Positions 26,059 to 49,674 of a stretch of 64,000 nt of DNA are shown here, one piece after another (position 1 is the first letter of the stretch; every line of letters begins with the position of its first letter). A program made the translations under genes and the position numbers. Origin of the DNA: Escherichia phage FL20; sequence record PP400781. One strand, given 5' to 3'. The notes beneath the pieces are model-generated. The model worked only from the letters and a program-made list of their open reading frames with translations. It did not search any database and was not told the origin of the DNA.

Positions 26059-26123
26059 TTGATACTCCTTAGTAGTTCGTTTCGGTATGAGTGTATTATG
26101 ATATACACCATCTGTTATGTCAA
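26059..26123 (-). promoter_or_regulatory. PeSL-like early promoter cassette
   Basis: Minus strand: TTGACA, 17-nt spacer, CATAAT, conserved leader, AGGAGT RBS, ATG. Confidence 0.65.
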
Positions 26124-26129
26124 CAACTT

Positions 26130-26309
26130 TTAGAACATTTTTGAAATTAATTCTGCTTTGATTTCGCAGAGAACATCTAAAGATTTCTCGTCACCCGCTT
26201 TTGCTGCTTCTGCTTGCATTTTTGAAATGGCTTCAATGTCAGTGCAATTATAAGCCGCTTGAACTTTAGCTATTGCGATGATTGCCGATTCGATGGTTAA
26301 GTGTTTCAT
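26130..26309 (-). CDS. hypothetical small protein (59 aa)
   Basis: ORF with AGGAGAATC RBS downstream of PeSL. Confidence 0.4.
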   Translation of the reverse strand: MKHLTIESAIIAIAKVQAAYNCTDIEAISKMQAEAAKAGDEKSLDVLCEIKAELISKMF

Positions 26310-26371
26310 GTTTGATTCTCCTTTCGTTTCGGTATGTGTGCATTATAGGGGATCACCGATCCCCCTGTCAA
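26310..26371 (-). promoter_or_regulatory. PeSL-like early promoter cassette
   Basis: TTGACA / 18-nt palindromic spacer GGGGGATCGGTGATCCCC / TATAAT / leader / RBS. Confidence 0.7.
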
Positions 26372-26378
26372 CAATTTT

Positions 26379-26897
26379 TTAGTTATTTTTTAATTGCTCA
26401 TCTTGCAATAGGGCAATCACATGCTGGCGATGTTCTTCCGATTGAGGCACACCGAAAAAGTTTGTTTTGTAGAAATACTCTAATCGGTCTTCTCGTGTGC
26501 TCTCTTCCATCATGATCGCGGGTAGTCCGAGATTTCGGAAACGTCGCTTTTCTGCTGGCGTAAAATCACTGTAATACAACATAGAATCATCATTACAAGC
26601 AATGCTAAACTCATCCTTCATAAAGGAGAATATTGCGTTTAAACGCTGTTTACCGTCCACGATTTCGATCTCATAGCGAGAGCCATCATCAATCTTAGCC
26701 ATTGCGATAGCACCAACCGGAAAATCATTAATCAGGTTTTCGATAAACATACGTTTGTTTTCGGTGTCCCATACTAAAGGACGCTGATAATCTGGGTTCA
26801 TGTTGATATAGCCATCTTCTAACCATGCATCATAAACAGAGATGACAAAGTTTTTAGTATTGGTATAGTAACGGCGTTTAGGCGTTAAACGGTTCAT
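26379..26897 (-). CDS. DUF262 (ParB/GmrSD N-terminal-like) domain protein
   Basis: DYQRPLVW and IVDGKQRL match DUF262 QR and DGQQR motifs; start at MNRL coupled 1 nt after upstream stop with AGGAG RBS. Confidence 0.65.
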   Translation of the reverse strand: MNRLTPKRRYYTNTKNFVISVYDAWLEDGYINMNPDYQRPLVWDTENKRMFIENLINDFPVGAIAMAKIDDGSRYEIEIVDGKQRLNAIFSFMKDEFSIACNDDSMLYYSDFTPAEKRRFRNLGLPAIMMEESTREDRLEYFYKTNFFGVPQSEEHRQHVIALLQDEQLKNN

Positions 26898-26898
26898 G

Positions 26899-27231
26899 TT
26901 ATAGTCTCCTGAATGGATCATCACGTAAATCAATATCTTTTAAGAACTCATCCCATGAATGCCGGATATTGTTCTTAATTCTCCAGATAAGCGCAGGGAT
27001 TGAACGCTCTCCCATCTGGAAGTATGGATCATATGATCCGTATGCCCAATATGCTACTACAATTCCACAATCAGCGCAATAGTATTCTATTTCACTTGCT
27101 GGCGACCAAAGTCCATCAATATGATCGGTGATCTTGCTTTCGATGTTATGGCTATGACAATCAGGGCAACGGATGCAATGACCTTGTTTATCGTAATTTG
27201 ACGTTAGCGAATACTTAAACAATCTCATCAT
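26899..27231 (-). CDS. Cys/His-rich zinc-ribbon-like protein
   Basis: CIRCPDCHSH ... CADCG paired CxxC motifs; overlaps neighbours by 4 nt. Confidence 0.5.
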   Translation of the reverse strand: MMRLFKYSLTSNYDKQGHCIRCPDCHSHNIESKITDHIDGLWSPASEIEYYCADCGIVVAYWAYGSYDPYFQMGERSIPALIWRIKNNIRHSWDEFLKDIDLRDDPFRRL

Positions 27232-27944
27232 AGATCCTTATTTGCTTCAAATACTGCCTTTGCGAATCCTCGCGGGGTAAGTGACCTGATAGTCTTTGTT
27301 TTCGTTCCTTTCCCGCCTAGCTTAGAATGCTGTTTACTGTACCCTTTATTAATCTGCAAAGGTTTCTTTTCTGGCATTATAAAGCCTTGTCCGGTCCATA
27401 AGCAAGTCTTTTTTGGGTACATATCACGGGCGGCAATATACTCAGGAAACGTAGGATGCTTATCATCTTCCGGCAAATAACCGCCATATTCCCACGGATG
27501 GAACATATAATCAGGCTTACGCCACATGCTAGAGATAACGCTTACAGGATTCTCTATCATGTAGGGAACTCCTAGCCATTCACCCAAATAAGCGGTTATT
27601 TTAGCTGCCCTTACATCATGAACTTGAATCAATGGTCCTTGTTCTAGTTTCTTTCGTTCAAAGTGCGCAGCGCCACTAACAGCTAAATTGGTGCACGGTG
27701 GGAATGCAAAGATAATATCCGGTTTCCCCCATTCAAGGTCCATTGCTCTTTCCAGCCAATTCAAATCAATCCAGGTGTTTACATAGGTAATGTTTTGATG
27801 TTCAAATCGGGTATTATATTTTTTGTATGTACCGTGGTCGCCATCATCAGCATTAAAGCAGATCACCTTATGACCTGCTTTAGCCCATTCTAGCCCCATT
27901 ATCCCCGATCCGTCAAAGTTGCAGAATATTAATTTTTGTTTCAT
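27228..27944 (-). CDS. C5-cytosine methyltransferase-like protein (short)
   Basis: FCNFDGSG (motif I-like), FAFPPCTNLAVSG (PC motif IV-like), YMIENP (ENV motif VI-like); only 238 aa, no clear target-recognition domain. Confidence 0.45.
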   Translation of the reverse strand: MKQKLIFCNFDGSGIMGLEWAKAGHKVICFNADDGDHGTYKKYNTRFEHQNITYVNTWIDLNWLERAMDLEWGKPDIIFAFPPCTNLAVSGAAHFERKKLEQGPLIQVHDVRAAKITAYLGEWLGVPYMIENPVSVISSMWRKPDYMFHPWEYGGYLPEDDKHPTFPEYIAARDMYPKKTCLWTGQGFIMPEKKPLQINKGYSKQHSKLGGKGTKTKTIRSLTPRGFAKAVFEANKDL

Positions 27945-28186
27945 ATACGACCCTTTAACCCAGCACAGATTTTAGTCGGTTCTTTACCGTGCCACATTAA
28001 GTAAAGTCCGTTAATGCGACCTTGTTTTGTGTGTGATTCTTTTCTGATCTTCTTATAGTGTCGTGCTTCCTCAACCGATTGTTTAGAATACCAATCATAA
28101 AGGAAGAGGAACAAAGGCCAGCCATTAGCGACCTTAATACAGTTATTCAAAAATTCCTTATTTCGTTTAATTAATTTTCTTTTCAC
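27941..28186 (-). CDS. hypothetical small basic protein (81 aa)
   Basis: Translationally coupled within the 28434-to-26379 operon. Confidence 0.45.
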   Translation of the reverse strand: MKRKLIKRNKEFLNNCIKVANGWPLFLFLYDWYSKQSVEEARHYKKIRKESHTKQGRINGLYLMWHGKEPTKICAGLKGRI

Positions 28187-28434
28187 GCTGCCCCCATTGG
28201 TTTGATAGTAACAGAATCTAAAAGACCTTTGTTAGCCAGTTCGCGGCAAGTTTTCAGATCCGCAACTTCCCAGCCAGCCGCAATCAGGTTATCAATCAGG
28301 CTGTTAGCAACTTCTTCGCTCATGAAAGAGCACTGTTTGCCGATGGTGTAGCGCACACGCTGTAATTTCAGTTTACGGAAGCCTTTAACGTTCAGGTCTT
28401 TAGCGATTTTCTTTGCGGTTTCGATGTTAGCCAT
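28183..28434 (-). CDS. hypothetical small protein (83 aa)
   Basis: First gene after PeSL; N-terminus MANIE shared with 25846..26058. Confidence 0.5.
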   Translation of the reverse strand: MANIETAKKIAKDLNVKGFRKLKLQRVRYTIGKQCSFMSEEVANSLIDNLIAAGWEVADLKTCRELANKGLLDSVTIKPMGAA

Positions 28435-28503
28435 TGTTTGATTCTCCTAAGTGGTATCTCGTCTTGATGGTTGTATTGTAGGGGAGTTATCCTCCCCTGT
28501 CAA
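28435..28503 (-). promoter_or_regulatory. PeSL-like early promoter cassette
   Basis: TTGACA / palindromic spacer GGGGAGGATAACTCCCC / TACAAT / leader / AGGAGAATC RBS. Confidence 0.7.
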
Positions 28504-28550
28504 CACTTTTTATAAAATTATTTGTTAATTTCTGGTGCGTTGCTAGGATA

Positions 28551-28685
28551 TTAACCTTCTTTAACTCCGAGGTATTTCGCAACCATCCCTACAATCTTCT
28601 GTGCTACTACAATGTCAAATTTCAGATAATCTTCGCCGTGGGTTTCAATGATATATGCTTCACATGCTGCTTTAGTCTCGAACAT
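28551..28685 (-). CDS. truncated paralog of 31801..31968 (44 aa)
   Basis: MFETKAACEAYIIETHGEDYLKFDIVVAQKI; TAA replaces TAC, shortening it by 12 codons relative to the paralog. Confidence 0.45.
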   Translation of the reverse strand: MFETKAACEAYIIETHGEDYLKFDIVVAQKIVGMVAKYLGVKEG

Positions 28686-28747
28686 TTTTATTCTCCTATT
28701 TCGTTTCGTTATGTGTGTATTATAGGGGATCTCCCGATCCCCGTCAA
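28686..28747 (-). promoter_or_regulatory. PeSL-like early promoter cassette
   Basis: TTGACG / palindromic 17-nt spacer with two GATC / TATAAT / leader / RBS. Confidence 0.65.
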
Positions 28748-28761
28748 CAACTTTTTTAAAA

Positions 28762-29043
28762 TTATTCGTGATTAGTTTCGATGTTGTGCATTTTGCACCA
28801 GTTCAGCCAATCACCCAGATCCTGATAGTTAATTCTTTTATCTGCTGCCATCGTTTTTGTCTTGATACCCATATGTGCGTTATGAGTAAGCATTTTTACA
28901 GTGAACTCAATTTTATCACCTTTAGCTTTAACATCAACCAGTTTGGTCCACTGGCTACCAGCTCCGCGAATGTTCATACCAACGATGTTTCCGATGTATG
29001 CTTCTTTGTTTTTCAGGATTTCGGTTGCTTTGATGAATTTCAT
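28762..29043 (-). CDS. hypothetical small protein (93 aa)
   Basis: ORF downstream of PeSL. Confidence 0.5.
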   Translation of the reverse strand: MKFIKATEILKNKEAYIGNIVGMNIRGAGSQWTKLVDVKAKGDKIEFTVKMLTHNAHMGIKTKTMAADKRINYQDLGDWLNWCKMHNIETNHE

Positions 29044-29105
29044 TTTTGATTCTCCAGTTCGTTTCGGTATGTGTGTATTATGCTATGTTCTTACTTTGGT
29101 GTCAA
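29044..29105 (-). promoter_or_regulatory. PeSL-like early promoter cassette
   Basis: TTGACA / 17 nt / CATAAT / conserved leader ACACACATACCGAAACGAA / RBS. Confidence 0.65.
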
Positions 29106-29113
29106 CAACTTTT

Positions 29114-29383
29114 TTAGATATTTTCAGAAATAAATTTTAAAACTTGACGTAAATGTTTCTCATCTTTGATAGTCGCCGGAAGTTCTTCTTTTACTTCCTG
29201 TGCAAGATAGATATTTCCGTTCCAAGTGAAAGATCCGTCTTCGTTTACGCGATAGCTGAACATCCACTCGCAATCATTTTCGATTTCATATACACACAGA
29301 AGGGTGTAATCGTTAAAGCTATTGATTTCAAGGTCGAAGCCGTGACGTTTTGCAAAGTTGGTAGTGGTTTTAGTCAGCGCCAT
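29114..29383 (-). CDS. hypothetical small protein (89 aa)
   Basis: ORF downstream of PeSL. Confidence 0.5.
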   Translation of the reverse strand: MALTKTTTNFAKRHGFDLEINSFNDYTLLCVYEIENDCEWMFSYRVNEDGSFTWNGNIYLAQEVKEELPATIKDEKHLRQVLKFISENI

Positions 29384-29452
29384 TGTTTGATTCTCCTAAG
29401 TGGTATCTCGTTTCGATGGGTGTATTATGCTATAGGCGTGATCTGGTGTCAA
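29384..29452 (-). promoter_or_regulatory. PeSL-like early promoter cassette
   Basis: TTGACA / 17 nt / CATAAT / leader variant shared with cassette at 28435. Confidence 0.65.
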
Positions 29453-29476
29453 CAACTTTTTTAAAATTTTATGCAA

Positions 29477-29502
29477 TAAAAAAGCCGACACTAAGGTCGG
29501 CT
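29477..29502 (-). terminator. rho-independent terminator (minus strand)
   Basis: Minus-strand hairpin AGCCGACCttagTGTCGGCT followed by 7 U. Confidence 0.65.
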
Positions 29503-29509
29503 AATAAAA

Positions 29510-29818
29510 TCATTTAGACAAATAATCATTCAGTGCAATCCGGTTGGCGTATGCTGGTGTTACGTCAATCGCAATCACTTTAACGCGTGCTTTCTTGCGA
29601 CCTGGGTTTTCTCGTAACCAGTGCTCATGACCGTGAACATTTTTATACTGCGATGCTTCTTCGAAGGTACGGATCGGACCTGGATAATCTGCGTAAAGGA
29701 TCTCTAGGTCTTCGGTGATGTAAAAATATACATCATAATTACTGTTCTCTAGTTTAAGCAGAGACTTTCGGAACATTGGGAGATTTTCGCGGGTAAATTC
29801 AAAGATATTATCTTTCAT
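29510..29818 (-). CDS. small protein, HxHW family member A
   Basis: YDVYFYITEDLEILYADY ... HGHEHW ... VKVIAIDV; paralog of B-G. Confidence 0.55.
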   Translation of the reverse strand: MKDNIFEFTRENLPMFRKSLLKLENSNYDVYFYITEDLEILYADYPGPIRTFEEASQYKNVHGHEHWLRENPGRKKARVKVIAIDVTPAYANRIALNDYLSK

Positions 29819-29871
29819 AGTATTATCCTCAATAGTTGGATGAAAAGGGGTGGGGCTTAACGCCCCGTATA

Positions 29872-30159
29872 TTAAAACAGTCCTTCCTGTACACCGTAGT
29901 AGAGTTCATCGCTGATAATTTCATTAATGCGACGGTGTGCATATTCCTGATTTGCGAAGTTATCAGCAAGTTCTACTTTAGTTTCGCCGTCATGAGTCCA
30001 TTTAGTGATAACTTTACCATCTGCAAATTTGAAGTTGAACTCTTTAGCTACCGCATCGCGTACCAGACGTGCGAACTTGTTGTTACGGATTGCATTATCG
30101 GTTTCGTGTGCAGCGTGAGCGAATTTGTTAACTTTCAGAGTGATAGTAATGTATGCCAT
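29872..30159 (-). CDS. hypothetical small protein (95 aa)
   Basis: ORF downstream of PeSL. Confidence 0.5.
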   Translation of the reverse strand: MAYITITLKVNKFAHAAHETDNAIRNNKFARLVRDAVAKEFNFKFADGKVITKWTHDGETKVELADNFANQEYAHRRINEIISDELYYGVQEGLF

Positions 30160-30234
30160 AATTTGATTCTCCTAGTTAGAAAGTGTATCTCGTTTCGATG
30201 GGGATATTATGCTATACACCCGATCTTATGTCAA
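30160..30234 (-). promoter_or_regulatory. PeSL-like early promoter cassette
   Basis: TTGACA / 17 nt / CATAAT / leader / AGGAGAATC RBS. Confidence 0.65.
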
Positions 30235-30240
30235 CACTTT

Positions 30241-30519
30241 TTATAAAATAATTTTTTGATATTTTTCTATGATGTTTGTGTAGGTCACGTCAACCGCTAG
30301 CACCGTTGCTTCGAATCCACCGTTTAACCAATGGCTATGATCATGATCGTGAAAGAAACCTAGACCAGTACGAAGACCTTCTTTATATTCGGCGCGTACA
30401 TTTAGATCATCATCGATAAACAGATAAAACCATGAATTTTTACTAGGATTGATGATACAACCTTTCAGATTAGGGAGAATATCACGACTAAGAATAAACT
30501 TATCACCTACTTTGAGCAT
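30241..30519 (-). CDS. small protein, HxHW family member B
   Basis: WFYLFIDDDLNVRAEY ... HDHDHSHW ... ATVLAVDV; start at MLKVG. Confidence 0.55.
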   Translation of the reverse strand: MLKVGDKFILSRDILPNLKGCIINPSKNSWFYLFIDDDLNVRAEYKEGLRTGLGFFHDHDHSHWLNGGFEATVLAVDVTYTNIIEKYQKIIL

Positions 30520-30533
30520 AATATTTTCCTCAC

Positions 30534-30842
30534 TTATAAAGTTTGACCGTTGTTTTTCGCGTAATGCTGAATGCGTGCTTGATCTGCTTCCGCTGGTGAT
30601 AGATTCCATGCAACCACTACAACTTCTGACGCATCGTCATCCGTTTTTGATACCCAATGATTGTGATTCATACAGTTATTTGCTATCGAGTGAGAAAATG
30701 ATTGCGTCACTGGAGACGTATAATCATAGTAACGGATTTTCAGATTTTCATCAACGTACAAGTAGATCGTATACGGCTTATATTCAGTAACCAGTAACAG
30801 ACAGTTACGCAATTCTGGGAAAATCTTTTTAGTTAATTTCAT
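30534..30842 (-). CDS. small protein, HxHW family member C
   Basis: YTIYLYVDENLKIRYYDY ... NHNHW ... VVVVAWNL; start at MKLTKK. Confidence 0.5.
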   Translation of the reverse strand: MKLTKKIFPELRNCLLLVTEYKPYTIYLYVDENLKIRYYDYTSPVTQSFSHSIANNCMNHNHWVSKTDDDASEVVVVAWNLSPAEADQARIQHYAKNNGQTL

Positions 30843-30843
30843 T

Positions 30844-31062
30844 TTATAATCCTCGGTCGCGGCTATAGTACACGGTACGCCATACAATTTCATGTTTCGT
30901 GTCGCTCCAGCACACGATCTCATTTACTCTTAAATCTTTGTTATCAACAAAAGATGAACATTGTGACGCTTCTTTCATCATTTTATCTGCTGTTTTCTCA
31001 TCAAATACAGCACAGATTTCTTTATACACTCGATAATCTTTGAATTGACTCTGAATACCCAT
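30844..31062 (-). CDS. hypothetical small protein, tandem paralog 1
   Basis: FKDYRVYKEICAVFDEKTADKMMKEASQCSSF resembles the next ORF. Confidence 0.4.
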   Translation of the reverse strand: MGIQSQFKDYRVYKEICAVFDEKTADKMMKEASQCSSFVDNKDLRVNEIVCWSDTKHEIVWRTVYYSRDRGL

Positions 31063-31279
31063 AATTAACACCATTCCAACCAATTGTTTTTGAGAAAACG
31101 TTTATCCACTGTTGAGTGTAGCATGTTTCTTTCCATGATACAATACGAGTAGAATAATGGTTTTTGTTTCCAGAAAAGGACGGGCATTTTGATGCATCTT
31201 CCATCATCTTTTCGGCGAACTCTGGTGCGTATACTCGCAGGATCTGTTGATATGCTTTGTATTCTTTAAATTTGCTCAT
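31022..31279 (-). CDS. hypothetical small protein, tandem paralog 2
   Basis: FKEYKAYQQILRVYAPEFAEKMMEDASKCPSF resembles the previous ORF; 3' end overlaps it. Confidence 0.4.
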   Translation of the reverse strand: MSKFKEYKAYQQILRVYAPEFAEKMMEDASKCPSFSGNKNHYSTRIVSWKETCYTQQWINVFSKTIGWNGVNYGYSESIQRLSSV

Positions 31280-31544
31280 AATCATTCACTACCTTATCAG
31301 CTTCTTTTGTTGTTTTTACATCAACTGCGATAACTCGTAAAGGTTCGTCATGGTTCCACCAGTGGTCATGAATATCAGCTTGTGATTTATCACAAAAGGA
31401 ATCACGAATATCATTTTTACATTTATAGCTAATGTGACCGTCATAGTCAACATAAAGGTAATTATCGAAAATCGGCGTTTTTAAGATCATACCGAAAAAT
31501 CTTTCTTTGTGTGTCTTATCCAGTGTTGCAGTAATTCGCATCAT
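31266..31544 (-). CDS. small protein, HxHW family member D
   Basis: NYLYVDYDGHISYKC ... HDHWWNH ... LRVIAVDV. Confidence 0.55.
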   Translation of the reverse strand: MMRITATLDKTHKERFFGMILKTPIFDNYLYVDYDGHISYKCKNDIRDSFCDKSQADIHDHWWNHDEPLRVIAVDVKTTKEADKVVNDYEQI

Positions 31545-31556
31545 AATATATTCCTC

Positions 31557-31736
31557 TTAGAAAGGGATGGTCATTTCTTGAGCTTGTACATTCTCGTTAG
31601 GATTAAACTTCATCCAGCCGATATTGTCTACCAGCATATGCACATTTTTATCATATCCTACGTGGGTAGTCAATACTGTATGTGCTTTACCTTCAATGAT
31701 GAGTTCCATGTACTTCTGAACTTCGATAGCTTTCAT
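31557..31736 (-). CDS. hypothetical small protein (59 aa)
   Basis: ORF below track cutoff, immediately downstream of PeSL. Confidence 0.4.
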   Translation of the reverse strand: MKAIEVQKYMELIIEGKAHTVLTTHVGYDKNVHMLVDNIGWMKFNPNENVQAQEMTIPF

Positions 31737-31797
31737 TTTGATTCTCCGTTTGTTGTCTTGATGGGAGTATCTTACTACTCCCTTTAATCATTGTCAA
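31737..31797 (-). promoter_or_regulatory. PeSL-like early promoter cassette
   Basis: TTGACA / 17 nt / TAAGAT with hairpin GGGAGTAgtaagaTACTCCC overlapping -10. Confidence 0.6.
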
Positions 31798-31800
31798 CTA

Positions 31801-31968
31801 TTATTTGTTAATTTCCGGTGCGTTGCTCGGATAGTAACCTTCTTTAACACCTAGATATTTTGCAACCATTCCGGTGATCTTCTGTGCTACTACGATATCG
31901 AATTTCAGGTAGTCTTCACCGTGGTTTGCTACAATGTATGCTTCGCATTCTGCTTTAGTCTCGAACAT
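31801..31968 (-). CDS. hypothetical small protein (56 aa), full-length paralog of 28551..28685
   Basis: MFETKAECEAYIVANHGEDYLKFDIVVAQKITGMVAKYLGVKEGYYPSNAPEINK. Confidence 0.5.
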   Translation of the reverse strand: MFETKAECEAYIVANHGEDYLKFDIVVAQKITGMVAKYLGVKEGYYPSNAPEINK

Positions 31969-32031
31969 TTTTGATTCTCCTATATCTCGTTGGTATGTGT
32001 GCATTATAGGGGATCACCGATCCCCTGTCAA
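31969..32031 (-). promoter_or_regulatory. PeSL-like early promoter cassette
   Basis: TTGACA / GGGGATCGGTGATCCCC / TATAAT / leader / RBS. Confidence 0.7.
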
Positions 32032-32038
32032 CAACTTT

Positions 32039-32341
32039 TTATTCTTCGTCTTTATCTTTATATGCGTATTTCATAAATTTGTCTGCTACTTCGTCCGCGT
32101 TTTCAGGTTCTACATCTGACGCTAGGACAACAGCTAGTTCGGTTTTGTCGTTTCCATCATACCAATGATTATGAGTGTCTTTTTCTTCGATATAAAACGA
32201 ATCATTTGGAGTTGGGCGACAATATACGTCTAAATTCCCATCGATATAAAAGATCCAATCCGAATACAAAATGATTGTTTTAGCCAGATTTTTATTGTCT
32301 CTTACAAAAGGTTCCGCGACAAATAGCTTAGTTTGTTCCAT
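32039..32341 (-). CDS. small protein, HxHW family member E
   Basis: WIFYIDGNLDVYCR ... HNHWYDG ... ELAVVLASDV; start at MEQTK. Confidence 0.55.
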   Translation of the reverse strand: MEQTKLFVAEPFVRDNKNLAKTIILYSDWIFYIDGNLDVYCRPTPNDSFYIEEKDTHNHWYDGNDKTELAVVLASDVEPENADEVADKFMKYAYKDKDEE

Positions 32342-32357
32342 AGTAATTTCCTCAAAA

Positions 32358-32549
32358 TTATACAGCTTCGTAAACTTCCCAATGTCCAACACCAGCACGC
32401 TTAACGAAAAGGTTTTCTTTGATGTTATTCATAAACGTCTGGATGGATTTAATGCGGTTGGAAGGTTTCCAGTCTTCGTTGGCATTGCGGCGATACATCA
32501 TAACATTACCAGTTCGCTTATATTCAGCAACCATTTTAAGACCACACAT
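32358..32549 (-). CDS. hypothetical small protein (63 aa)
   Basis: ORF downstream of a variant cassette. Confidence 0.4.
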   Translation of the reverse strand: MCGLKMVAEYKRTGNVMMYRRNANEDWKPSNRIKSIQTFMNNIKENLFVKRAGVGHWEVYEAV

Positions 32550-32627
32550 AATATTATCCTCAATTTGTGGGAGAGTATTACCCTCCCGATTATTGTTATA
32601 CTACATTACGCAAAATGGCGTGTCAAT
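32550..32627 (-). promoter_or_regulatory. variant early promoter with leader stem-loop
   Basis: TTGACA / spacer / TATAAC, then hairpin GGGAGggtaatactCTCCC in leader, RBS GAGGATAA. Confidence 0.5.
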
Positions 32628-32926: not shown

Positions 32927-32927
32927 G

Positions 32928-33194: not shown

Positions 33195-33213
33195 TTAGTT
33201 ACCTCTCGTTAAA

Positions 33214-44393: not shown

Positions 44394-44740
44394 TAATTCA
44401 CCTCACTATCACTTTTTAACACAAAAGATCTTAGTATTTCTGTTTACTTCGCTATCCTGCTGCAATTCCTGCACAGCTTCAAAACAATTTTGATGTGATG
44501 AAAACTCTACGCTGGTAACAGTTCCTTTATTATATGATCCTACGCTAACGGAAAGCAATAACCATACAGTAGCCATTATCCGACAACCTCAAAACATTTA
44601 TCATCAGGAAGAATCGCCCATTCTACACCATATTCATCCTCGACGTAGTCAAGTCCCATCATGTCGAGCATCATATTCATCACCAACAACAAAGCTATCA
44701 GCTAGTTCAAAATCTACAGCAACACATTTTAATTTGGTCA

Positions 44741-44801
44741 TAATAAAATCCTCACTTGTTTTTGATGGTTGTATTATAGCGGGGATTTCTCCCCGCGTCA
44801 A
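44741..44801 (-). promoter_or_regulatory. PeSL-like early promoter cassette
   Basis: TTGACG / palindromic spacer GCGGGGAGAAATCCCCGC / TATAAT. Confidence 0.6.
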
Positions 44802-44809
44802 CACTTATT

Positions 44810-47053
44810 TTACAGCTTGCAAGATGAGCACTCGCTAGCGTCTTCCGTACCATCTGCACCGTCGCGAACGTTCGCATAATACAGGGTTTTCAGACCGTAA
44901 TGTTGAGCGAACAACATATCATCTAACACATCAGCAATATCGACTTTACCAGTCTTATAAGTGCTTGGATCATAGGATGTATTGGAACTAATCGCCTGAT
45001 CTACAAACTTCTGCATGATCGCTGCCAGTGTCAGATAGGGCTTGTTACCTTTCTTGATCAGTGTCCAAAGCAGGTCAATAACATCAGCATTATTCTCTAC
45101 GTTCGGAATAACCTGATTAAATTGCCCTTCTTTCGATCCTTTAACCGATACAATCCCGCGAGGTGGTTCAATACCGTTTGTGCTGTTAGACACCTGAGAA
45201 GATGACTCACAAGGCATCAGCGCCGAAAGCGTACTGTTACGAATGCCATATTTTTTCAGGTCTTCGCGCAGTTCTTCCCAATCCATCTCATACACCGGAT
45301 CAACCAGTTCATCTACTGTCTTTTTGTACCAGTCGATAGGCAGTTCACCGCGACCATAACGTGTTTCATGCATCAGTTCGCAAGCACCCTTCTCTTTAGC
45401 CAGTTGCACACTAGCCTTAATCAGAGCATATTGCAAGCGTTCAAACGTTTTATGCGTAAACTCGCTAGCGTCTTCATATGTGAAGAAATTATCTGCTAGA
45501 TATGATGCAAAGTTAGTCACACCAACACCCAGAGAGCGACGTTTTTTGGCTGTCAGAGCTTGTTCTACAGGATAATCCTGATAATCTAACAGGTTGTCCA
45601 GTGCACGCACCATAACCATAGCAATGCGTTCTACTTCTTCCATATTTTCGATATCAAAGTTTCCTAAAACATATGCTGCCAAAGTACATAGGCTGATCTC
45701 TGAATCATCACGACCCATCGGTTTTGTAGGCAGAGCAATTTCACAACACAGGTTAGATTGTTTAATCGGTGCTACATTACGAATAAACGCCCCGTGATTG
45801 TTCATGTTGTCTGTGAACGTTGGGTAGATTCGACCAGTGTTAAAACGTTCAATTGCCACCGCTAAAAACAGGTCTTCGGCTTTAACACGAGTTTTACGAA
45901 CACTCGGATCTTTTTCCAGTTTTTCGTAAAGTTGGCGGAAACCTTCCTCGTCTCGGAAGTACAGATCCCACAACAAGCCACCCGCAACATCTGGACTAAA
46001 CAGAGTAATGTAATCCCGTTTAAGGAATCGCTCTACCATCAGGTTATTAATCTGTACGCCGTAGTCAAGATGGCGAATGCGGTTATCTTCCACGCCCTTA
46101 TTGTTCTTTAACACAATCAGACTTTCAAACTCTAAATGCCACATTGGGTAATAGAGTGTCGCTGCCCCGCCACGAATACCGCCTTGTGAGCATGACTTAA
46201 CGGCAGTCTGAAAATGTTTCCAGAATGGGATAACTCCAGTATGACGAACTTCACCATGCCCGATCTTAGATCCTTCCGCGCGAATCATGCCAGCGTTGAT
46301 ACCGATACCAGCACGCTTGCTAATATACTTGATGATTGCATTTGCGGTTTCATTAATACCCTGCAATGAGTCATCACTTTCAATCACCACACACGAACTA
46401 AATTGGCGTGTTGGGGTACGCACACCTGCCATAATCGGAGTAGGCAGAGAGATTTGCTTATTCGCAACCGCATTATAAAAATCAATCACATGTTCAAGTC
46501 GATTTTCTGTCTCTTCTTGATGCAAGCACATACCGATCAGCATATACGCAAATTGCGGTGTTTCGATGATTTTCTTAGTGCTGCGATCTTGAACAAGATA
46601 TTTCTCTTTTAACTGCATCGCACCAGCATAGGTCATTTTAAAATCAAGTTTATGGTCGATGAATTTCTCCAGATATTCCACTTCTTCACGGGAATACTTT
46701 TGCAGAATTTCGCGATCATATTTTCCGGTTGCAATATTACGCTCAATATGGCTGTAAAAATCAATCGGTTGGAATTGACCGTATACTGATTTGCGAAGCG
46801 CGAACATTGCAAGGTTACTTGCTACATATTGATAATCGGGTGTTTCTACAGTAATGTTATCTGCTGCGACCTTAATCAATACTTTCTGGATATCGTTGGT
46901 AGACATACCTTCTGTCAGAAGTGGTTCAACCATATCAAACAATTCATATGGATCAACGTTATGACCTTCGGCTGCCGCTTCCAGAATTTTCATTACTTTT
47001 TCTTTTTCAAAAGGAACAGTCAGACCGGAAGACTTAACAACATTTTTAATCAT
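44810..47053 (-). CDS. nrdA: ribonucleotide reductase large subunit
   Basis: 747 aa; N-terminal ATP-cone, catalytic NLCCEI, C-terminal CSSC; class Ia. Confidence 0.95.
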   Translation of the reverse strand: MIKNVVKSSGLTVPFEKEKVMKILEAAAEGHNVDPYELFDMVEPLLTEGMSTNDIQKVLIKVAADNITVETPDYQYVASNLAMFALRKSVYGQFQPIDFYSHIERNIATGKYDREILQKYSREEVEYLEKFIDHKLDFKMTYAGAMQLKEKYLVQDRSTKKIIETPQFAYMLIGMCLHQEETENRLEHVIDFYNAVANKQISLPTPIMAGVRTPTRQFSSCVVIESDDSLQGINETANAIIKYISKRAGIGINAGMIRAEGSKIGHGEVRHTGVIPFWKHFQTAVKSCSQGGIRGGAATLYYPMWHLEFESLIVLKNNKGVEDNRIRHLDYGVQINNLMVERFLKRDYITLFSPDVAGGLLWDLYFRDEEGFRQLYEKLEKDPSVRKTRVKAEDLFLAVAIERFNTGRIYPTFTDNMNNHGAFIRNVAPIKQSNLCCEIALPTKPMGRDDSEISLCTLAAYVLGNFDIENMEEVERIAMVMVRALDNLLDYQDYPVEQALTAKKRRSLGVGVTNFASYLADNFFTYEDASEFTHKTFERLQYALIKASVQLAKEKGACELMHETRYGRGELPIDWYKKTVDELVDPVYEMDWEELREDLKKYGIRNSTLSALMPCESSSQVSNSTNGIEPPRGIVSVKGSKEGQFNQVIPNVENNADVIDLLWTLIKKGNKPYLTLAAIMQKFVDQAISSNTSYDPSTYKTGKVDIADVLDDMLFAQHYGLKTLYYANVRDGADGTEDASECSSCKL

Positions 47054-47121
47054 ATTACCTCACTTCATATTTTAGCAGGAACAAGTTTATCCTCCATATT
47101 GGGGGCTTTCGCCCCCTTTGT

Positions 47122-48354
47122 TTATACTGCCATTTGAGCGGTGATTGCTGGATGGCTTTGATAGTTGTGAATTTTAAAGTCTTTCGGAGTCTTTGTCAAT
47201 ACCTCATCTAAAGATTTAAATTCCGGCAACTCAATCGTTGGTTTATCAAACGGAACACGGCTTAACTGTTCCATAACTTGATCAAAATGGTTTTTGTAAA
47301 TGTGAGTATCTCCACCAGAGAAAATCAGTTCTCCTACCTCAAGATCACACATTTTCGCTATGATGTGAGTTAACAGCGCATAGCTGGCGACGTTAAAGGG
47401 CAAGCCTAAAAAGCTGTCTACGCTTCTCTGAAACCACATACAAGACAGTTTACCTTCATTGACGTAGAATTGCACGAAAGGATGACATACACCCAATACA
47501 GCATTATGTGTTCCTTGTACGTTCCATGAGTCAATAATGATCCGGCGATCCGTTGGATTGTTTTTAATTTGTTCAATCACGTTTTGTAACTGGTCTTCCC
47601 AAATCTTCTGGCGATAGACATATTCTTCATCGTCTTTAGTGCTCGATGTGTCTACGTCCATACTAGCAAAGATCGTGGTATCTGGTGCTAAAATATCCCC
47701 ACCCAGATAATCACTATCAAGCAGATAACCGAAATAACCATCATCTACCCATTCCTGGAATCCCCACAAGCAATATGCATCATTAACAAAATTAGATTGA
47801 GTCTTCCAGTGGTCTGCTACTAAGAATAGATTATACTCAGAATCAAACTCTTCATAACGCATACCACGCCAGATAGCACATAAACGGTCTTCTGTTTCAT
47901 TGGTTGGCGTAAAGTCTTCTACCCACGGGTGCTTAAATGTATGTGCATATTTGCTCTTAACGCGCTTAATTTTGATTTCACCGTGTGGATGAATCGGTTT
48001 GCGTCGCCATGCCATACCATACATATTGCCGACATTATAACCATTGAATCGCAAAGGATTCTTTTCTTTCATATCAAGACAGTTGCCGCGCCAAATGTCG
48101 AAGGCTTCTTCGTCAAACTTACCGCGTGTAATTTCCTGTAAGCGACGGCGGTCAAGTGATCCCTCCATAAACCATAGCAATTCACCAATTACAGAGGCTG
48201 TAGCCATCTTTTTAGTGGTCAGTAAGGGGAAACCCTTGCTTAAGTCAATTCGCATTTCTGCACCGAATTTAGAGAGCGTACCTATCCCCGTTCGGTCTTC
48301 ACGAGGCCAGCCATTATCAAGAACATCACGCAACAGTTTCAAATATTCTTTCAT
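47122..48354 (-). CDS. td: thymidylate synthase with ~125-aa insertion
   Basis: ThyA motifs CHPFVQFYV, GKLSC, QRSVDSFLGLPFN, ASYALL; extra residues between the YGxxWR and DQL..V..IKNNPTDRRII regions. Confidence 0.85.
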   Translation of the reverse strand: MKEYLKLLRDVLDNGWPREDRTGIGTLSKFGAEMRIDLSKGFPLLTTKKMATASVIGELLWFMEGSLDRRRLQEITRGKFDEEAFDIWRGNCLDMKEKNPLRFNGYNVGNMYGMAWRRKPIHPHGEIKIKRVKSKYAHTFKHPWVEDFTPTNETEDRLCAIWRGMRYEEFDSEYNLFLVADHWKTQSNFVNDAYCLWGFQEWVDDGYFGYLLDSDYLGGDILAPDTTIFASMDVDTSSTKDDEEYVYRQKIWEDQLQNVIEQIKNNPTDRRIIIDSWNVQGTHNAVLGVCHPFVQFYVNEGKLSCMWFQRSVDSFLGLPFNVASYALLTHIIAKMCDLEVGELIFSGGDTHIYKNHFDQVMEQLSRVPFDKPTIELPEFKSLDEVLTKTPKDFKIHNYQSHPAITAQMAV

Positions 48355-48622
48355 CCCACATCACCTTTTTCTTATTGATTGCTTTCTTACGCAGTTTTGC
48401 TACTGTCTCGTCAATATCGATAAAGACAACGCCACGGTCGAATACAGTAGCAGGTCTTGAGATATCGCTATTTTCTTGCACAGGAAGCCATGATGCGCTC
48501 GCTTCATCATAGAGATATTGTAAACCGTAATAATCTACGGCTACTGCGTAGTTTTCACTGGTAGCCGTCCATAATTGAATAATACCGACTTTCATTATTG
48601 TTCCCGTCCGCAATGTAAGCAC
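48326..48622 (-). CDS. hypothetical protein (98 aa)
   Basis: ORF between frd and td. Confidence 0.4.
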   Translation of the reverse strand: MLTLRTGTIMKVGIIQLWTATSENYAVAVDYYGLQYLYDEASASWLPVQENSDISRPATVFDRGVVFIDIDETVAKLRKKAINKKKVMWDERIFETVA

Positions 48623-48688
48623 CGACTACCAGCAAACATTAAAGATTCACCACAATGTTTGCACTCATAATCTGTCAGAATTTTCATG

Positions 48689-49270
48689 TTACGCCTTCTT
48701 ACGTTCTAAAATTTGTTCGCTGATCAGGTAATTATCAAGGAAGTAATTATGTTCTTCTTTGGTTACAAAGTCAAAATACAATTCCTGAATCATTTCCTTA
48801 GATATACCAACATCATATTCAAATGGATCGTTGATCCCTGAACGTTGAACATACGTTAACACAATACGGTCCGCAAAGTCAACTGCTTTTTCAATCAGGG
48901 AAGGTCCACCAATAACGCTTACCAAACCTTGCAATTTCTCTATGACTTCTAATAATTCCTTCAATCCACCATCATTAGTAATCGCGGTATACACATCAGG
49001 TTGTTCGCCGTTTTTTGCTGTCGGTGCTGGCTTACTGGTATCGGTACTAACAACCACATTCACACGACCTTCCAGTGCTTTAGGAAGACTTTCAAAGGTA
49101 TTGCGTCCCATTACAACCGCCGCAAGATCAACATCTCCCATAGTGCGCATTTTAAAGTTTTCCATGTCCTTTTTGATTGGACGACCCCACGGTAAACCGC
49201 CTTTAAAACCAAAAGACCAATTTTCATCCGACATTTTAGTGTCACCAATCGCAAATACACATTGAATCAT
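48689..49270 (-). CDS. frd: dihydrofolate reductase
   Basis: 193 aa; GLPWGRP motif; T4 frd position. Confidence 0.85.
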   Translation of the reverse strand: MIQCVFAIGDTKMSDENWSFGFKGGLPWGRPIKKDMENFKMRTMGDVDLAAVVMGRNTFESLPKALEGRVNVVVSTDTSKPAPTAKNGEQPDVYTAITNDGGLKELLEVIEKLQGLVSVIGGPSLIEKAVDFADRIVLTYVQRSGINDPFEYDVGISKEMIQELYFDFVTKEEHNYFLDNYLISEQILERKKA

Positions 49271-49285
49271 AATATAAATCTCCTA

Positions 49286-49615
49286 TCAAACCAGCTTGAG
49301 ATAGTTTTCGTTAACGTTTTCTTCTGTGATCTCGGTTTTAAACTCATTACCAACATCAGGAGAAACATAATAGCGTTCGGAATAATCACGCCACATTTTC
49401 AGTAGGCTGACACCAACATTAACACCATTTTCCCAGAAACGGAAGATAATTTTATTTGCGGTGTAGCGGTAATCGCTTTGAATCAAGCTGCCATCACCGC
49501 GACGTGATTCATAAACCGTAATACATTCACGGTTAGCGGCTTTAAGACATTCTTCAATAGTGCCGCATGAGATAATTTCGGTTGAGTCGTTTACGATTTG
49601 TTCTACAGTCCACAT
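49286..49615 (-). CDS. hypothetical protein (109 aa)
   Basis: ORF downstream of PeSL; frd.x position. Confidence 0.5.
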   Translation of the reverse strand: MWTVEQIVNDSTEIISCGTIEECLKAANRECITVYESRRGDGSLIQSDYRYTANKIIFRFWENGVNVGVSLLKMWRDYSERYYVSPDVGNEFKTEITEENVNENYLKLV

Positions 49616-49674
49616 AATATAATCCTCTCTTTGTTTCGATGTGTGTATTATACATTACCACATCAGCATGTCAA
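49616..49674 (-). promoter_or_regulatory. PeSL-like early promoter cassette
   Basis: TTGACA / 16 nt / TATAAT / leader CACACATCGAAACAAAGAGAGGATT. Confidence 0.6.

Follow-up and report, generated by a model that had tools for sequence, protein, structure and literature searches.

PeSL-type early promoter cassettes in and beyond the alt-to-gene-30 region of Escherichia phage FL20, a relative of RB49 and phi1

Composite early promoter/stem-loop elements (PeSLs) were defined in coliphages RB49 and phi1, in the region of phi1 ORF185-212 (Arbiol, Comeau, Kutateladze, Adamia and Krisch 2010, Genome Biol Evol 2:140; PMC2839356), in a study that included lacZ promoter and terminator assays. They were later extended to the pairs T4/PST and KVP40/nt-1 (Comeau, Arbiol and Krisch 2014; PMC4122927), in which composite promoter-terminator motifs of differing sequence lie, as in FL20, in hyperplastic regions and at the indel boundaries of close genome pairs. 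For RB49, the consensus of early promoters fits the mapped 5' ends of early transcripts (Nolan et al. 2006; PMC1524935). Early promoters of T4 and RB49 are like the cassettes described here in their host sigma-70 type, their A-rich tract at -40 to -44, their C-rich -3 to -1 positions and their placement ahead of early genes and novel ORFs, and those of RB49 also in having T or C at -12 (PMC1524935). T4 early promoters have the T4-type -35 GTTTAC, whereas the cassettes have TTGACA, in a promoter set within a longer conserved unit (hairpin, leader and ribosome-binding site [RBS]).

We analyzed a window of 64,000 nucleotides from Escherichia phage FL20 (PP400781), a T4-like coliphage of the genus Krischvirus (the RB49/phi1/JSE group) with approximately 96% (94-98%) identity to Krischvirus genomes. 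The repeated cassettes in this window are very probably the PeSLs of an RB49/phi1-type phage, acting as self-contained early-expression modules in intergenic gaps. They are real repeats, already described and partly assayed in the same RB49/phi1 region, and thus not new. Cassette 31953-32041 includes the complete 68-nt RB49 PeSL206/205 (68/70 identical, the gap in the window being 2 nt longer), which gave strong lacZ fusion expression of about 13,000 Miller units (PMC2839356), and cassette 28675-28765 is identical to RB49 PeSL192/191 at 72/76 positions; the early promoter/stem-loop/RBS reading of the preliminary description is supported. FL20 and RB49/phi1 share the genus, the genome region, the architecture (AT-rich tract with a stop codon, sigma-70 promoter, stem-loop, Shine-Dalgarno, ATG), a stem-loop in one of several positions, and the indel loci that vary between genomes (ORF192, ORF195/196 and ORF210/211). 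Nothing essential separates them; FL20 has its own combination of modules and its own hairpin alleles, among them a mismatched hybrid stem at 30234.

An nhmmer search with a profile made from the copies located 16 full cassettes, each of them on the minus strand (E 7e-20 to 9e-11), with the next-best match at E 0.022. When the 10 copies at 26-33.5 kb alone went into the model, it recovered the other six, at 41.8-49.7 kb (E 1.6e-13 to 9e-4), and 20 first-order Markov random windows yielded no match. A sigma-70 consensus scan, independent of the profile, scored all 16 copies at 10/12 or better. The motif TTGAC-N19-ATAAT occurs 12 times in the window, always on the minus strand (0.45 expected), and GGGGATC-N3-GATCCCC three times (0.03 expected). 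The cassettes are therefore where they had been placed, on one strand and far above chance, and the ends of the range first given, 26059-49674, are exact, being the base preceding the first ATG and the base at which the last -35 begins. At least 17 copies had been claimed; the repeat family stands, the strict count is 16, and the element at 32550-32640, which is probably the 17th, fits only loosely. The features, with the ORF that each cassette would drive, are as follows.

23648-23725, minus strand: composite promoter/terminator beyond 26059-49674, TTGACT-17-TATACT; 12-13 bp hairpin over the -10 (dG -18.3), then TTTTCTGTT
25846-33472, minus strand: hyperplastic region between alt and HNH/gene 30, homologous to phi1 ORF185-ORF209
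26047-26140, minus strand: PeSL cassette, -35 TTGACA at 26123-26118, -10 CATAAT at 26100-26095, nhmmer E 8e-16; weak stem over -10, dG -6.4; ORF 25846-26058 (phi1 ORF185 homologue)
26297-26386, minus strand: PeSL cassette, spacer hairpin GGGGGATCGGTGATCCCC with two GATC, -10 TATAAT; ORF 26130-26309 (ORF186 homologue)
28426-28521, minus strand: PeSL cassette, spacer hairpin GGGGAGGATAACTCCCC (dG -17.9 with outer pairs; kept at the site in 10 relatives), -10 TACAAT; ORF 28183-28434 (ORF190 homologue)
28675-28765, minus strand: PeSL cassette, TTGACG, spacer hairpin GGGGATCGGGAGATCCCC, TATAAT, RBS GGAGAATAAAA; truncated ORF 28551-28685 (ORF191 homologue)
29028-29120, minus strand: PeSL-type cassette without stem-loop, TTGACA-17-CATAAT, spacer invariant across 10 relatives; ORF 28762-29043 (ORF193 homologue)
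29377-29469, minus strand: PeSL cassette, TTGACA-17-CATAAT, one GATC, promoter stem absent; ORF 29114-29383 (ORF194 homologue)
29483-29502, minus strand: canonical terminator hairpin and T-run just upstream of cassette 29377-29469 (terminator scan, repeat family)
30153-30252, minus strand: PeSL cassette, mismatched hybrid stem over -10; ORF 29872-30159 (ORF198 homologue)
31723-31813, minus strand: PeSL cassette, stem GGGAGTA/TACTCCC, -10 TAAGAT in the stem's loop and 3' arm; ORF 31557-31736 (ORF204 homologue)
31953-32041, minus strand: PeSL cassette, spacer hairpin GGGGATCGGTGATCCCC; ORF 31801-31968 (ORF205 homologue)
32550-32640, minus strand: PeSL-like element outside the profile, -35 at 32626, TTGACA-17-TAGTAT, RBS GAGGATAATATTATG
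33378-33472, minus strand: chimeric PeSL cassette, spacer hairpin GGGGATCACCGATCCCC; ORF 33214-33393 (ORF209 homologue)
41849-41943, minus strand: PeSL cassette, stem GGGAGTA/TACTCCC over -10 TAAGAT; ORF 41469-41867
42077-42172, minus strand: PeSL cassette, stem GGGGGTAT/ATACCCCC over -10 TAATAT; ORF 41938-42087
42356-42447, minus strand: PeSL cassette, stem GGGGGTA/TACTCCC (one G-T pair) over -10 TAAGAT; ORF 42155-42373
42635-42729, minus strand: PeSL cassette, TTGACA-17-CATAAT, one GATC, internal stem absent
42727-42750: canonical terminator immediately upstream of cassette 42635-42729
44726-44816, minus strand: PeSL cassette downstream of nrdA, TTGACG, spacer hairpin GCGGGGAGAAATCCCCGC, TATAAT, RBS GAGGATTTTATTATG
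49601-49691, minus strand: PeSL cassette, TTGACA-16-TATAAT, weak stem; ORF 49286-49615
49702-49729: terminator upstream of cassette 49601-49691

The dense block at 25.8-33.5 kb is the alt-to-gene-30 region. Its description as hyperplastic holds: it is syntenic with phi1 ORF185-ORF212, where PeSLs were defined, and takes in the loci of PeSL193/192, 206/205 and 211/210 (PMC2839356). It contains about 25 small ORFs together with 10 full cassettes and the looser one, in a module combination of the phage's own, lacking ORF192 (an ORFan assigned to HPR3; PMC2839356), ORF195/196 and ORF210/211 and having an extra ORF at 32928-33194. All 10 of the cassette-driven ORFs tested fall in PHROGs families of unknown function. 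The cassette family occurs at 483 places in 58 of 50,697 phage records, all from Escherichia or Shigella phages of the Krischvirus-type group. The looser element, 32550-32640, has a leader different from that of the full cassettes, the stop codon of the upstream gene within its spacer and a stem-loop (GGGAGGGTAATACTCTCCC) downstream of its -10. The element at 23648-23725, between alt and an alt-like ORF183 homologue, has no nhmmer match to the cassette profile; the homologous site in GEC-3S is annotated as a promoter.

Every cassette fills an entire intergenic gap as a repeated unit of 65-95 bp, in the order stop codon, A-rich tract, TTGACA, spacer of 16-18 nt, -10, A/C-rich leader (79% A+C), GGAG-type RBS and ATG. 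As first described, the A-rich tract is followed by TTGACA (14 copies) or TTGACG (two), and the three -10 hexamers originally listed, TATAAT (six), CATAAT (five) and TAAGAT (three), cover 14 of the 16 copies, with TAATAT and TACAAT in one each. Conserved sequence is not confined to the hexamers but continues into AAAAAGTTG on the upstream side and ACACNCAT..CGAAACGA on the downstream side. The spacer is 17 nt long in 14 copies, and 16 and 18 nt in the others, within the range reported; a GC-rich inverted repeat had been ascribed to every spacer, but lies inside it in only six (-35 starts 44801, 33456, 32031, 28747, 28503 and 26371). A stem overlaps the -10 in another seven, strongly in four (42435, 42154, 41929 and 31797) and weakly or with mismatches in three (30234, 26123 and 49674), and an internal stem is absent from three (42712, 29452 and 29105), the last of which has no stem nearby either. 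In ten copies the hairpin is stable (-9.5 to -17.9 kcal/mol).

The two-GATC spacer singled out in the preliminary description is present in four copies, and seven of the 16 spacers have at least one GATC, similarly placed, 3-5 nt beyond the -35. With 11 sites in 272 nt of spacer and 351 in the 64,000 nt of the window, GATC is about seven times denser in the spacers. Such a pattern might reflect Dam methylation or SeqA sensitivity, such that injected, fully methylated DNA and new, under-methylated DNA are transcribed differently. We regard this as highly improbable, given that GATC-free alleles (GGGGAGGTTAAACTCCCC, GGGAGTA.., GCGGGGA..) take the place of GATC alleles at the same sites, that GATC is lost in some orthologues, that in the class overlapping the -10 the GAT merely extends the stem, and that the genome-wide count is neither high nor low (351 versus 342 expected). 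Because the copies are related by descent, the spacer sites are not independent observations.

Stem sequence varies in a way that keeps pairing. Among 149 cassettes (the window plus 10 relatives) we observed alternative, perfectly paired stems, namely GGGAGTA/TACTCCC or GGGGGTA/TACCCCC, GGGTGTAT/ATACACCC or GGGGATAT/ATATCCCC, and GGGGATC/GATCCCC or GGGGAG/CTCCCC, and orthologous sites bear different hairpin alleles, with compensated stems, among relatives; the stem structure appears from these alignments to be under selection. Cassette 30234 (30153-30252) combines the 5' arm GGGTGTAT of one allele with the 3' arm ATATCCCC of the other, and its hybrid stem has a dG of -6.3, where the two perfectly paired alleles of relatives reach -12.6 and -12.7. 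Were the -35/-10 palindromes instead operators for a dimeric phage or host protein that shuts early promoters, and not hairpins, a perfect palindrome in the spacer would be in the classic position, and GGGGATC-N3/4-GATCCCC does recur in four cassettes of the window and, among relatives, is the allele seen most often. This explanation is very unlikely: the stems shift in sequence and position with pairing kept by compensatory changes, unrelated hairpin alleles substitute at the same site, three cassettes have no palindrome, and an isolated stem-loop placed between promoter and reporter cut lacZ expression, an RNA-level effect (PMC2839356). Neither allele swapping at orthologous sites nor the RegB-like RBS considered below is mentioned in PMC2839356, and these are two small additions to the known PeSL picture.

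The internal hairpins have no T-run behind them and were not called as terminators in a consensus terminator scan, and three cassettes are closely preceded by a separate canonical terminator (29483-29502, 42727-42750 and 49702-49729), which suggests that the stems inside the cassettes differ from terminators. The first of these, with its cassette, is the PeSL subclass whose stem-loop lies in the AT-rich upstream region. Both observations would also fit a reading in which the hairpins chiefly shield 3' ends or are processed by RNase, and so determine how stable the upstream mRNA is, rather than end transcription. We consider that role unlikely, since the PeSL211/210 stem-loop alone reduced lacZ to the level of rrnB T1 (PMC2839356), in an assay that cannot separate termination from processing; the word 'terminator' would be carried over to these hairpins from one published reporter construct.

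Taking promoter activity, stem-loop attenuation and mini-circle formation from the literature on PeSLs, we propose that unmodified host RNA polymerase would read the A-rich, UP-like tract and near-consensus sigma-70 promoter right after infection. The GC-rich hairpin, whether it sits within the spacer, across the -10 or a little further upstream, precedes the cassette's own start site and so would be transcribed only by read-through from the preceding unit; it may attenuate or terminate that transcript and insulate neighbouring units. The short A/C-rich leader, in which little structure is expected, and the GGAG Shine-Dalgarno would favour efficient translation of the small gene that follows. 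RegB nuclease may then cut the conserved GGAGAATCAAA, shutting off early mRNA.

This last step is suggested by resemblance to the T4 RegB/S1 sites, which likewise lie in early intergenic regions and have an A-rich tract after a GGAG Shine-Dalgarno. The strong-site consensus of T4 RegB, GGAGRAYARAA (cut GG*AG), lies in early-gene translation initiation regions, and the diverged regB of RB49 is active (PMC3014915). GGAGAATCAAA, present in ten cassette RBSs, is a putative cleavage site matching 10 of the 11 consensus positions, through which RegB of the phage could silence early mRNAs; GGAGAATAAAA, in one cassette RBS (28675-28765), matches all 11. GGAGRAYNRAA occurs 12 times in the window (1.2 expected), 11 of them inside cassettes. 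The putative sites differ from those of T4 in that the RB49-group RegB has diverged and 10 of the 11 copies have C at position 8, where the T4 consensus has A; we found no description in the literature of Krischvirus RegB specificity beyond GGAG/GGAU.

Because a unit of 65-95 bp recurs many times in one orientation, the very active homologous recombination of the phage would cross between copies, and such crossovers may delete, insert or swap promoter-plus-gene modules while leaving genes and expression intact. Rearrangement breakpoints at cassettes, proposed earlier as a check on this reading, were found in related genomes, as were chimeric cassettes: in comparison with 11 relatives, eight of 18 indel events break within a cassette or no more than 15 bp from one. 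Cassettes with 15 bp margins make up 3.1% of the window (P = 2.7e-8), but under a more conservative null model of gene junctions (about 16 of 90 bearing a cassette) the enrichment weakens to P = 0.008; it could also arise because viable recombinants are the ones that survive, and not from a raised exchange rate. A possible, although less probable, explanation is that these are ordinary strong early promoters with RBSs, alike only by functional constraint, and passive repeats with no particular part in genome plasticity, at which indels end merely because intergenic breakpoints survive. The near-consensus hexamers and Shine-Dalgarno are such constraints, the enrichment under the junction null is just P = 0.05 once same-site events are merged (6/16), and most of the 10 of 18 indels away from cassettes are explained otherwise, at least four being homing-endonuclease genes. 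Against this, the leader ACACACATACCGAAACGA and the AAAAAGTTG tract are conserved at positions without a known promoter role, crossovers inside cassettes are visible as chimeras and as the hybrid stem, modules inserted in relatives have a cassette at both ends, and mini-circles with PeSL junctions have been recovered by inverse PCR and sequenced (PMC2839356).

Individual events show the exchange of PeSL-bounded modules at single sites. ORF186 is missing in two relatives, with breakpoints inside cassettes 26297-26386 and 26047-26140 and a chimeric cassette at the indel; the downstream half of 26047-26140 is that of the single chimeric cassette in the OZ035808 'Krischvirus RB49' assembly. Insertions fall exactly at cassette 28675-28765 in G2494 (+529 bp) and reference RB49 (+537 bp, ORF192), an RB49 insertion of 406-427 bp (ORF195/196) breaks within cassette 29377-29469, and others break in cassette 49601-49691 (GEC-3S, +1143 bp; OZ035808, +348 bp). 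Cassette 41849-41943 bounds a 138-bp module (ORF 41938-42087) missing in two relatives. ORF210, or ORF210 with ORF211, is present in eight relatives and missing from FL20, and cassette 33378-33472 is by alignment a chimera whose upstream flank resembles phi1 PeSL212/210 and whose post-hairpin part resembles phi1 PeSL210/209.

Intergenic gaps on the minus strand between 26.0 and 49.7 kb share one layout: the upstream gene's stop codon, an A-rich tract whose last bases, immediately 5' of the -35 element, have the consensus AAAAAGTTG, TTGACA or TTGACG, a spacer of 16-18 nt, a -10 hexamer, a leader rich in A and C and resembling ACACACATACCGAAACGA, a GGAG-type ribosome-binding site (RBS) and ATG. 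For those cassettes at 25.8-33.5 kb in which the upstream stop codon was located by direct reading of the sequence, it precedes the -35 element by 3-17 nt. A profile search of the window for this cassette returned exactly 16 matches (E = 7e-20 to 9e-11), all on the minus strand, with the next best at E = 0.022. The result is not circular, because a model built from the 10 copies at 26-33.5 kb alone recovers the 6 copies at 41.8-49.7 kb and because the cassette model gave zero matches in 20 random windows. The repeats noticed in the preliminary description are therefore real, although its count of at least 17 becomes 16 under the strict profile. One more element, the 17th (-35 at 32626), combines a promoter with a stem-loop 3' of the -10 hexamer but differs in its leader, which places it outside the profile, and a composite promoter/terminator at 23648-23725 lies beyond the range first described (26059-49674).

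Simpler patterns agree with the profile. TTGAC-N19-ATAAT occurs 12 times in the window (0.45 expected) and GGGGATC-N3-GATCCCC three times (0.03 expected); an independent sigma-70 scan finds at least 10 of 12 consensus matches in all 16 cassettes and 12 of 12 in three of them; and a generic repeat finder groups the copies as families D1-D5. All 16 have a Shine-Dalgarno (SD) sequence and start codon at the 3' end, with the ATG 5-8 nt after the SD (GGAGAAT(C/A) in 11 cassettes, GGAGTA(C/T)C in two, GAGGATT in two and GGAGGAAC in one). The motif AGGAGAATCAAA, allowed up to two mismatches, is not significant on its own (16 matches against 9.0 expected); only its exact and near-exact copies inside cassettes stand out. 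At gathering thresholds no Rfam family matched anywhere in the window, and the leader and hairpins are therefore not a known RNA family. Sigma-70 matches inside genes (39219, 38215, 27916 and others) were rejected as cassette copies, being within coding sequence and without leader and RBS. Among 50,697 phage records the cassette sequence family was found in 58, all Escherichia or Shigella phages of the Krischvirus group, at 6-11 BLAST-detectable places per record.

The window region shares 94-98% identity with Krischvirus genomes (RB49, phi1, JSE, GEC-3S, ELT4 and others) and is identical to none. Its dense block of cassettes at 25.8-33.5 kb is flanked by alt and by the HNH/gene 30 ligase genes; it shows synteny with phi1 ORF185-ORF212 and covers the loci studied when promoter-early stem-loops (PeSLs) were defined in phi1 and RB49 (Arbiol et al. 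2010; PMC2839356). PeSLs combine a sigma-70 consensus promoter, preceded by an AT-rich tract, with a stem-loop and with the downstream gene's SD and ATG; the stem-loop takes one of five positions (in the spacer, over the -35, over the -10, in the upstream AT-rich region or 3' of the -10). They number about 52 per genome, are intergenic, concentrate in hyperplastic regions, stand mostly 5' of ORFans, and are associated with insertions, deletions and replacements between closely related genomes (PMC2839356). The window cassettes share the promoter, AT-rich tract, stem-loop, SD/ATG, intergenic position, indel association and orthology, so that every testable defining sequence feature of the family is present. 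Cassette 31953-32041 includes the complete 68-nt RB49 PeSL206/205 (identity 68/70), cassette 28675-28765 is identical to RB49 PeSL192/191 at 72 of 76 positions, and the PeSL211/210 stem, GGGGATC/GATCCCC, is common to four window cassettes. In the GEC-3S record the homologous gaps already carry promoter annotation.

The earlier reading of these repeats as PeSL-like early promoter/stem-loop/RBS elements is thus supported both by the defining features and by orthology to the RB49 and phi1 elements: the cassettes are real, the interpretation is right, and the feature has already been described at the same locus of sister genomes. The PeSL idea was extended in 2014 to T4/PST and KVP40/nt-1 (PMC4122927). 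Our additions are modest: hairpin alleles are swapped while their stems stay compensated, one stem is a hybrid, the RBS resembles a RegB site, and the indels divide into a PeSL type and a homing-endonuclease type. The designation of 25.8-33.5 kb as a hyperplastic region also stands, since the 7.6-kb block from alt to gene 30 holds 10 of the 16 cassettes and the downstream ORFs tested (10/10) match solely PHROGs families of unknown function.

A GC-rich inverted repeat had been described in every spacer, which is true of six cassettes; the remaining 10 differ. In four, a strong stem overlaps the -10 and places the hexamer in its loop and 3' arm; in three, the stem over the -10 is weak or mismatched; the last three are without a stem. 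A canonical terminator hairpin with a T-run lies directly upstream of two of the three stem-less cassettes and of the weak-stem cassette 49674 (named, like others below, by its -35 start; 49601-49691), and cassette 29105 (29028-29120) has no stem-loop, internal or just upstream. The internal hairpins are stable, yet all lack a T-run after the stem, and a terminator scan picked up none of them. The spacer with two GATC sites is present, in four copies, and at least one GATC occurs in 7 of 16 spacers.

We compared stems across 149 cassettes parsed from the window and 10 relatives. Alternative, perfectly paired stems with changes on both arms include GGGAGTA/TACTCCC and GGGGGTA/TACCCCC, with GGGTGTAT/ATACACCC and GGGGATAT/ATATCCCC as further two-sided alternatives, and GGGGATC/GATCCCC, GGGGAG/CTCCCC and GCGGGGA/TCCCCGC are other paired versions. 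The site upstream of the ORF209 homologue reads GGGGATCaccGATCCCC, GGGGATCgggaGATCCCC or GGGGAGgttaaaCTCCCC depending on the phage, with the leader unchanged, and the commonest hairpin allele carries its loop in either orientation, ACC or GGT, at orthologous sites. In window cassette 30234 (30153-30252) the 5' arm belongs to one allele and the 3' arm to the other; the resulting hybrid stem has two mismatches and a dG of -6.3, compared with about -12.6 for the parental alleles. Taken together, the alleles and the hybrid stem favour a selected hairpin over a sequence-specific operator, and they show exchange within cassettes. We rank low the possibility that the spacer palindrome is an operator, because alleles without the palindrome sequence take its place at orthologous sites. 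A role as a Dam switch, for which the spacer GATC sites would be the targets, is also ranked low: GATC-free hairpin alleles take over at orthologous sites, which argues against an obligatory role of these sites. Over the whole window GATC is at expectation (351 observed, 342 expected); GGCC is strongly under-represented (22 observed, 68 expected from trinucleotides). The phage DNA methyltransferase at 27228-27944 (minus), which has no Pfam match, is a poor candidate for a GATC methylase; its FPPC and ENP motifs, found by eye, fit the Dcm or C-5 cytosine methylase label that it carries in some relatives.

We evaluated gene gain and loss by comparing the window with 11 related sequences, with BLAST matches chained. 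A search of IMG/VR with the gene 30 ligase had found two close loci and four distant ones (ligase identity 42-44%); relatives were drawn from the GenBank phage collection, and the distant IMG/VR loci L004-L007 were left out. Among 18 distinct indel or replacement events, 8 have a breakpoint in a cassette or within 15 bp of one.

Insertions and missing modules relative to the window (cassettes on the minus strand)
ORF186 module: present in the window, missing from OZ035808 (a 'Krischvirus RB49' assembly) and an ECD7-like contig
Cassette 28675-28765: ORF192 insertion in reference RB49 and G2494
Cassette 29377-29469: ORF195/196 insertion in reference RB49 and OZ035808
Cassette 33378-33472: ORF210-only insertion, one event, in phi1, GEC-3S, ELT4, the ECD7-like contig and OZ035808
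Cassette 33378-33472: ORF210+211 insertion, a second event, in reference RB49, G2494 and FL37
Cassettes 41849-41943 to 42077-42172: 138-bp module missing from the ECD7-like contig and IMG/VR locus L003
Cassette 49601-49691: two different insertions, two events, of 1143 bp in GEC-3S and 348 bp in OZ035808

Cassettes with 15-bp margins make up 3.1% of the window, so that a uniform null gives P = 2.7e-8 for 8 of 18 events; a stricter null, with about 16 of 90 gene junctions at cassettes, gives P = 0.008, and merging same-site events (6 of 16) gives P = 0.05. The junction sequences are stronger evidence of shuffling than these statistics. Cassette 33456 (33378-33472) is chimeric, its upstream flank being that of phi1 PeSL212/210 and its downstream part that of phi1 PeSL210/209, and a single cassette in OZ035808 consists of the promoter and hairpin of window cassette 26371 (26297-26386) joined to the leader end and gene of cassette 26123 (26047-26140). 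The expectation that related genomes would differ at cassette boundaries is borne out by these chimeras and by the 8 events. A 1971-bp deletion in L003 (window 28346..30318) was rejected as cassette-mediated: it ends within ORFs, with a 16-bp overlap, 66-80 bp from cassettes. At 44553-44578 four relatives are longer by 147-150 bp, with a junction overlap of 23-26 bp; this seems to be a short-repeat-mediated deletion in the window that truncates or fuses small ORFs just downstream of cassette 44726-44816. The two RB49-named records, OZ035808 and NC_005066, differ by cassette-bounded modules (ORF186 and ORF192 are in NC_005066 and missing from OZ035808), and OZ035808 may be a different isolate bearing the species name.

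PeSLs are among the few concrete, partly tested mechanisms proposed for the gain, loss and shuffling of small accessory genes in T4-like phages with expression kept. The window adds a further, independent genome whose sequence directly shows the footprints that this mechanism predicts: chimeric cassettes where indels join, a hybrid stem and a duplicated cassette-flanked module. The general picture is unchanged, and the practical value lies in annotation: the 16 gaps should be labelled early promoters/PeSLs, and both the block at 25.8-33.5 kb and the cluster at 41.8-42.7 kb should be treated as accessory and recombination-prone.

The duplicated module involves a 55-codon gene at 31801-31968 (minus), downstream of cassette 32031 (31953-32041), whose product is 89% identical in amino acids to that of 28551-28685 (minus), downstream of cassette 28747 (28675-28765). 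Both genes are flanked by cassettes on either side, and the pair looks like a module copied within the genome. In the copy at 28551-28685, homologous to phi1 ORF191, codon 45 is an in-frame TAA (44 rather than 55 aa), and relatives have 168-bp ORFs annotated at this position. Tandem paralogues of about 90-105 aa with an H-W motif (26-30% identity, BLASTP E = 1e-4 to 3e-12) also occur in the region.

Tandem H-W paralogues
29510-29818, minus strand
30241-30519, minus strand
30534-30842, minus strand
31266-31544, minus strand
32606-32926, minus strand
32039-32341, minus strand (probable member)

On the same strand, ORF 30844-31062 and its neighbour at about 31022-31285 form another paralogous pair (39% identity). 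Local duplication is thus a further way in which the hyperplastic region grows. An 88-aa ORF at 32928-33194 (minus), missing from 10 of 11 relatives and shared by G2494 only, is an insertion placed exactly between the homologues of ORF208 and ORF209, with no flanking cassette. The region also includes a GmrSD_N/DUF262-type domain (26379-26897, minus; Pfam E = 6e-20) and the methyltransferase gene.

Each cassette is most likely a self-contained early-expression unit. Host RNA polymerase would initiate at its strong promoter, because PeSL206/205, of identical sequence, gave strong lacZ expression (PMC2839356) and because the mapped 5' ends of early transcripts are stated to fit the consensus predicted for RB49 early promoters (Nolan et al. 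2006; PMC1524935). Since the cassette's own start lies downstream of the hairpin, solely read-through transcripts of the preceding unit would contain it. To judge from one published construct, in which the PeSL211/210 stem-loop matched the rrnB T1 terminator in lowering downstream expression (PMC2839356), the hairpin would reduce this read-through; with the T-run missing, it may act by termination or by processing. The leader (79% A+C, 9% G), presumably unstructured, would aid translation from the GGAG Shine-Dalgarno. Since the units are direct repeats of 65-95 bp, homologous recombination between cassettes would delete, insert or swap promoter-plus-gene modules; circular DNAs with ORF192 or ORF210 arise from exchange between neighbouring PeSLs (PMC2839356).

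The conserved RBS GGAGAATCAAA, in ten copies, agrees with the T4 RegB/S1 strong-site consensus GGAGRAYARAA at 10 of 11 positions, and the RBS GGAGAATAAAA, in one copy, at all 11; GGAGRAYNRAA occurs 12 times in the window (1.2 expected), 11 of them within cassettes. Given its A+C content, the leader is likely to be unpaired around this site, and the match suggests that early mRNAs from the cassettes would be RegB targets. The regB of RB49 is active though diverged (PMC3014915), and the PeSL paper of Arbiol et al. makes no mention of RegB (PMC2839356). A second translation-initiation motif, GAGGAWWWTAYTATG, has eight exact copies (0.18 expected), on the minus strand only.

Exact copies of the second translation-initiation motif
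29816-29830, minus strand
30517-30531, minus strand
31542-31556, minus strand
32339-32353, minus strand
32547-32561, minus strand
37930-37944, minus strand
44739-44753, minus strand
49613-49627, minus strand

Its users are mostly internal (non-first) genes of early units, plus two cassettes, and it includes GGAU, also listed as a cleavable core in a review of RegB (PMC3014915).

It is conceivable, but very improbable, that the cassette does more than combine a promoter and an insulator, with the double-GATC palindrome of the spacer making early promoters responsive to Dam methylation or SeqA and, in addition, RegB cutting at the conserved GGAGAATCAAA. In that case every shuffled gene of unknown function would bring along an on-switch, an insulator and two means of shut-off, linked to replication in one case and to mRNA inactivation in the other. 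As a separate point, the hairpin alleles, including the loop flip ACC/GGT, move between cassettes independently of the leader, which would point to palindrome-centred exchange. To our knowledge, the Krischvirus-type phage group has no MotA-type middle transcription.

Genes or fragments of homing endonucleases account for 4 of the 10 non-cassette indel events, and such indels are a second route of plasticity, without cassettes.

Homing-endonuclease genes and fragments
11864-12616, plus strand: SegE-like GIY-YIG, beside uvsW
36498-37116, minus strand: NUMOD4, at 36784-37116
50799-51395, minus strand: HNH_3/AP2, between genes 32 and 59
54345-54593, minus strand: AP2-only ORF

Near-consensus sigma-70 promoters without the cassette leader (TTGACA-16/17-TATAAT or TATAGT) lie at 8944-9004, 9533-9560 and 50785-50813 (minus), the one at 9560 coming after a canonical terminator (9572-9599); they probably belong to a wider PeSL class. 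The ORF at 54961-58701 (1246 aa, plus), with no Pfam match, is probably the proximal long tail-fibre gene by its position after genes 32 and 59, and contains repeated 43-nt units (56287-57049, plus) spaced 108-372 nt apart that encode G-I-A-E-I-A-T-Q-like motifs. Gene 32 (49737-50738, minus) contains, at 49843-49917, 2.8 perfect tandem copies of a 27-nt repeat; they encode GINAASTVV units near the C-terminal end of gp32, the single-strand DNA-binding protein, and GEC-3S and OZ035808 have one full unit fewer.
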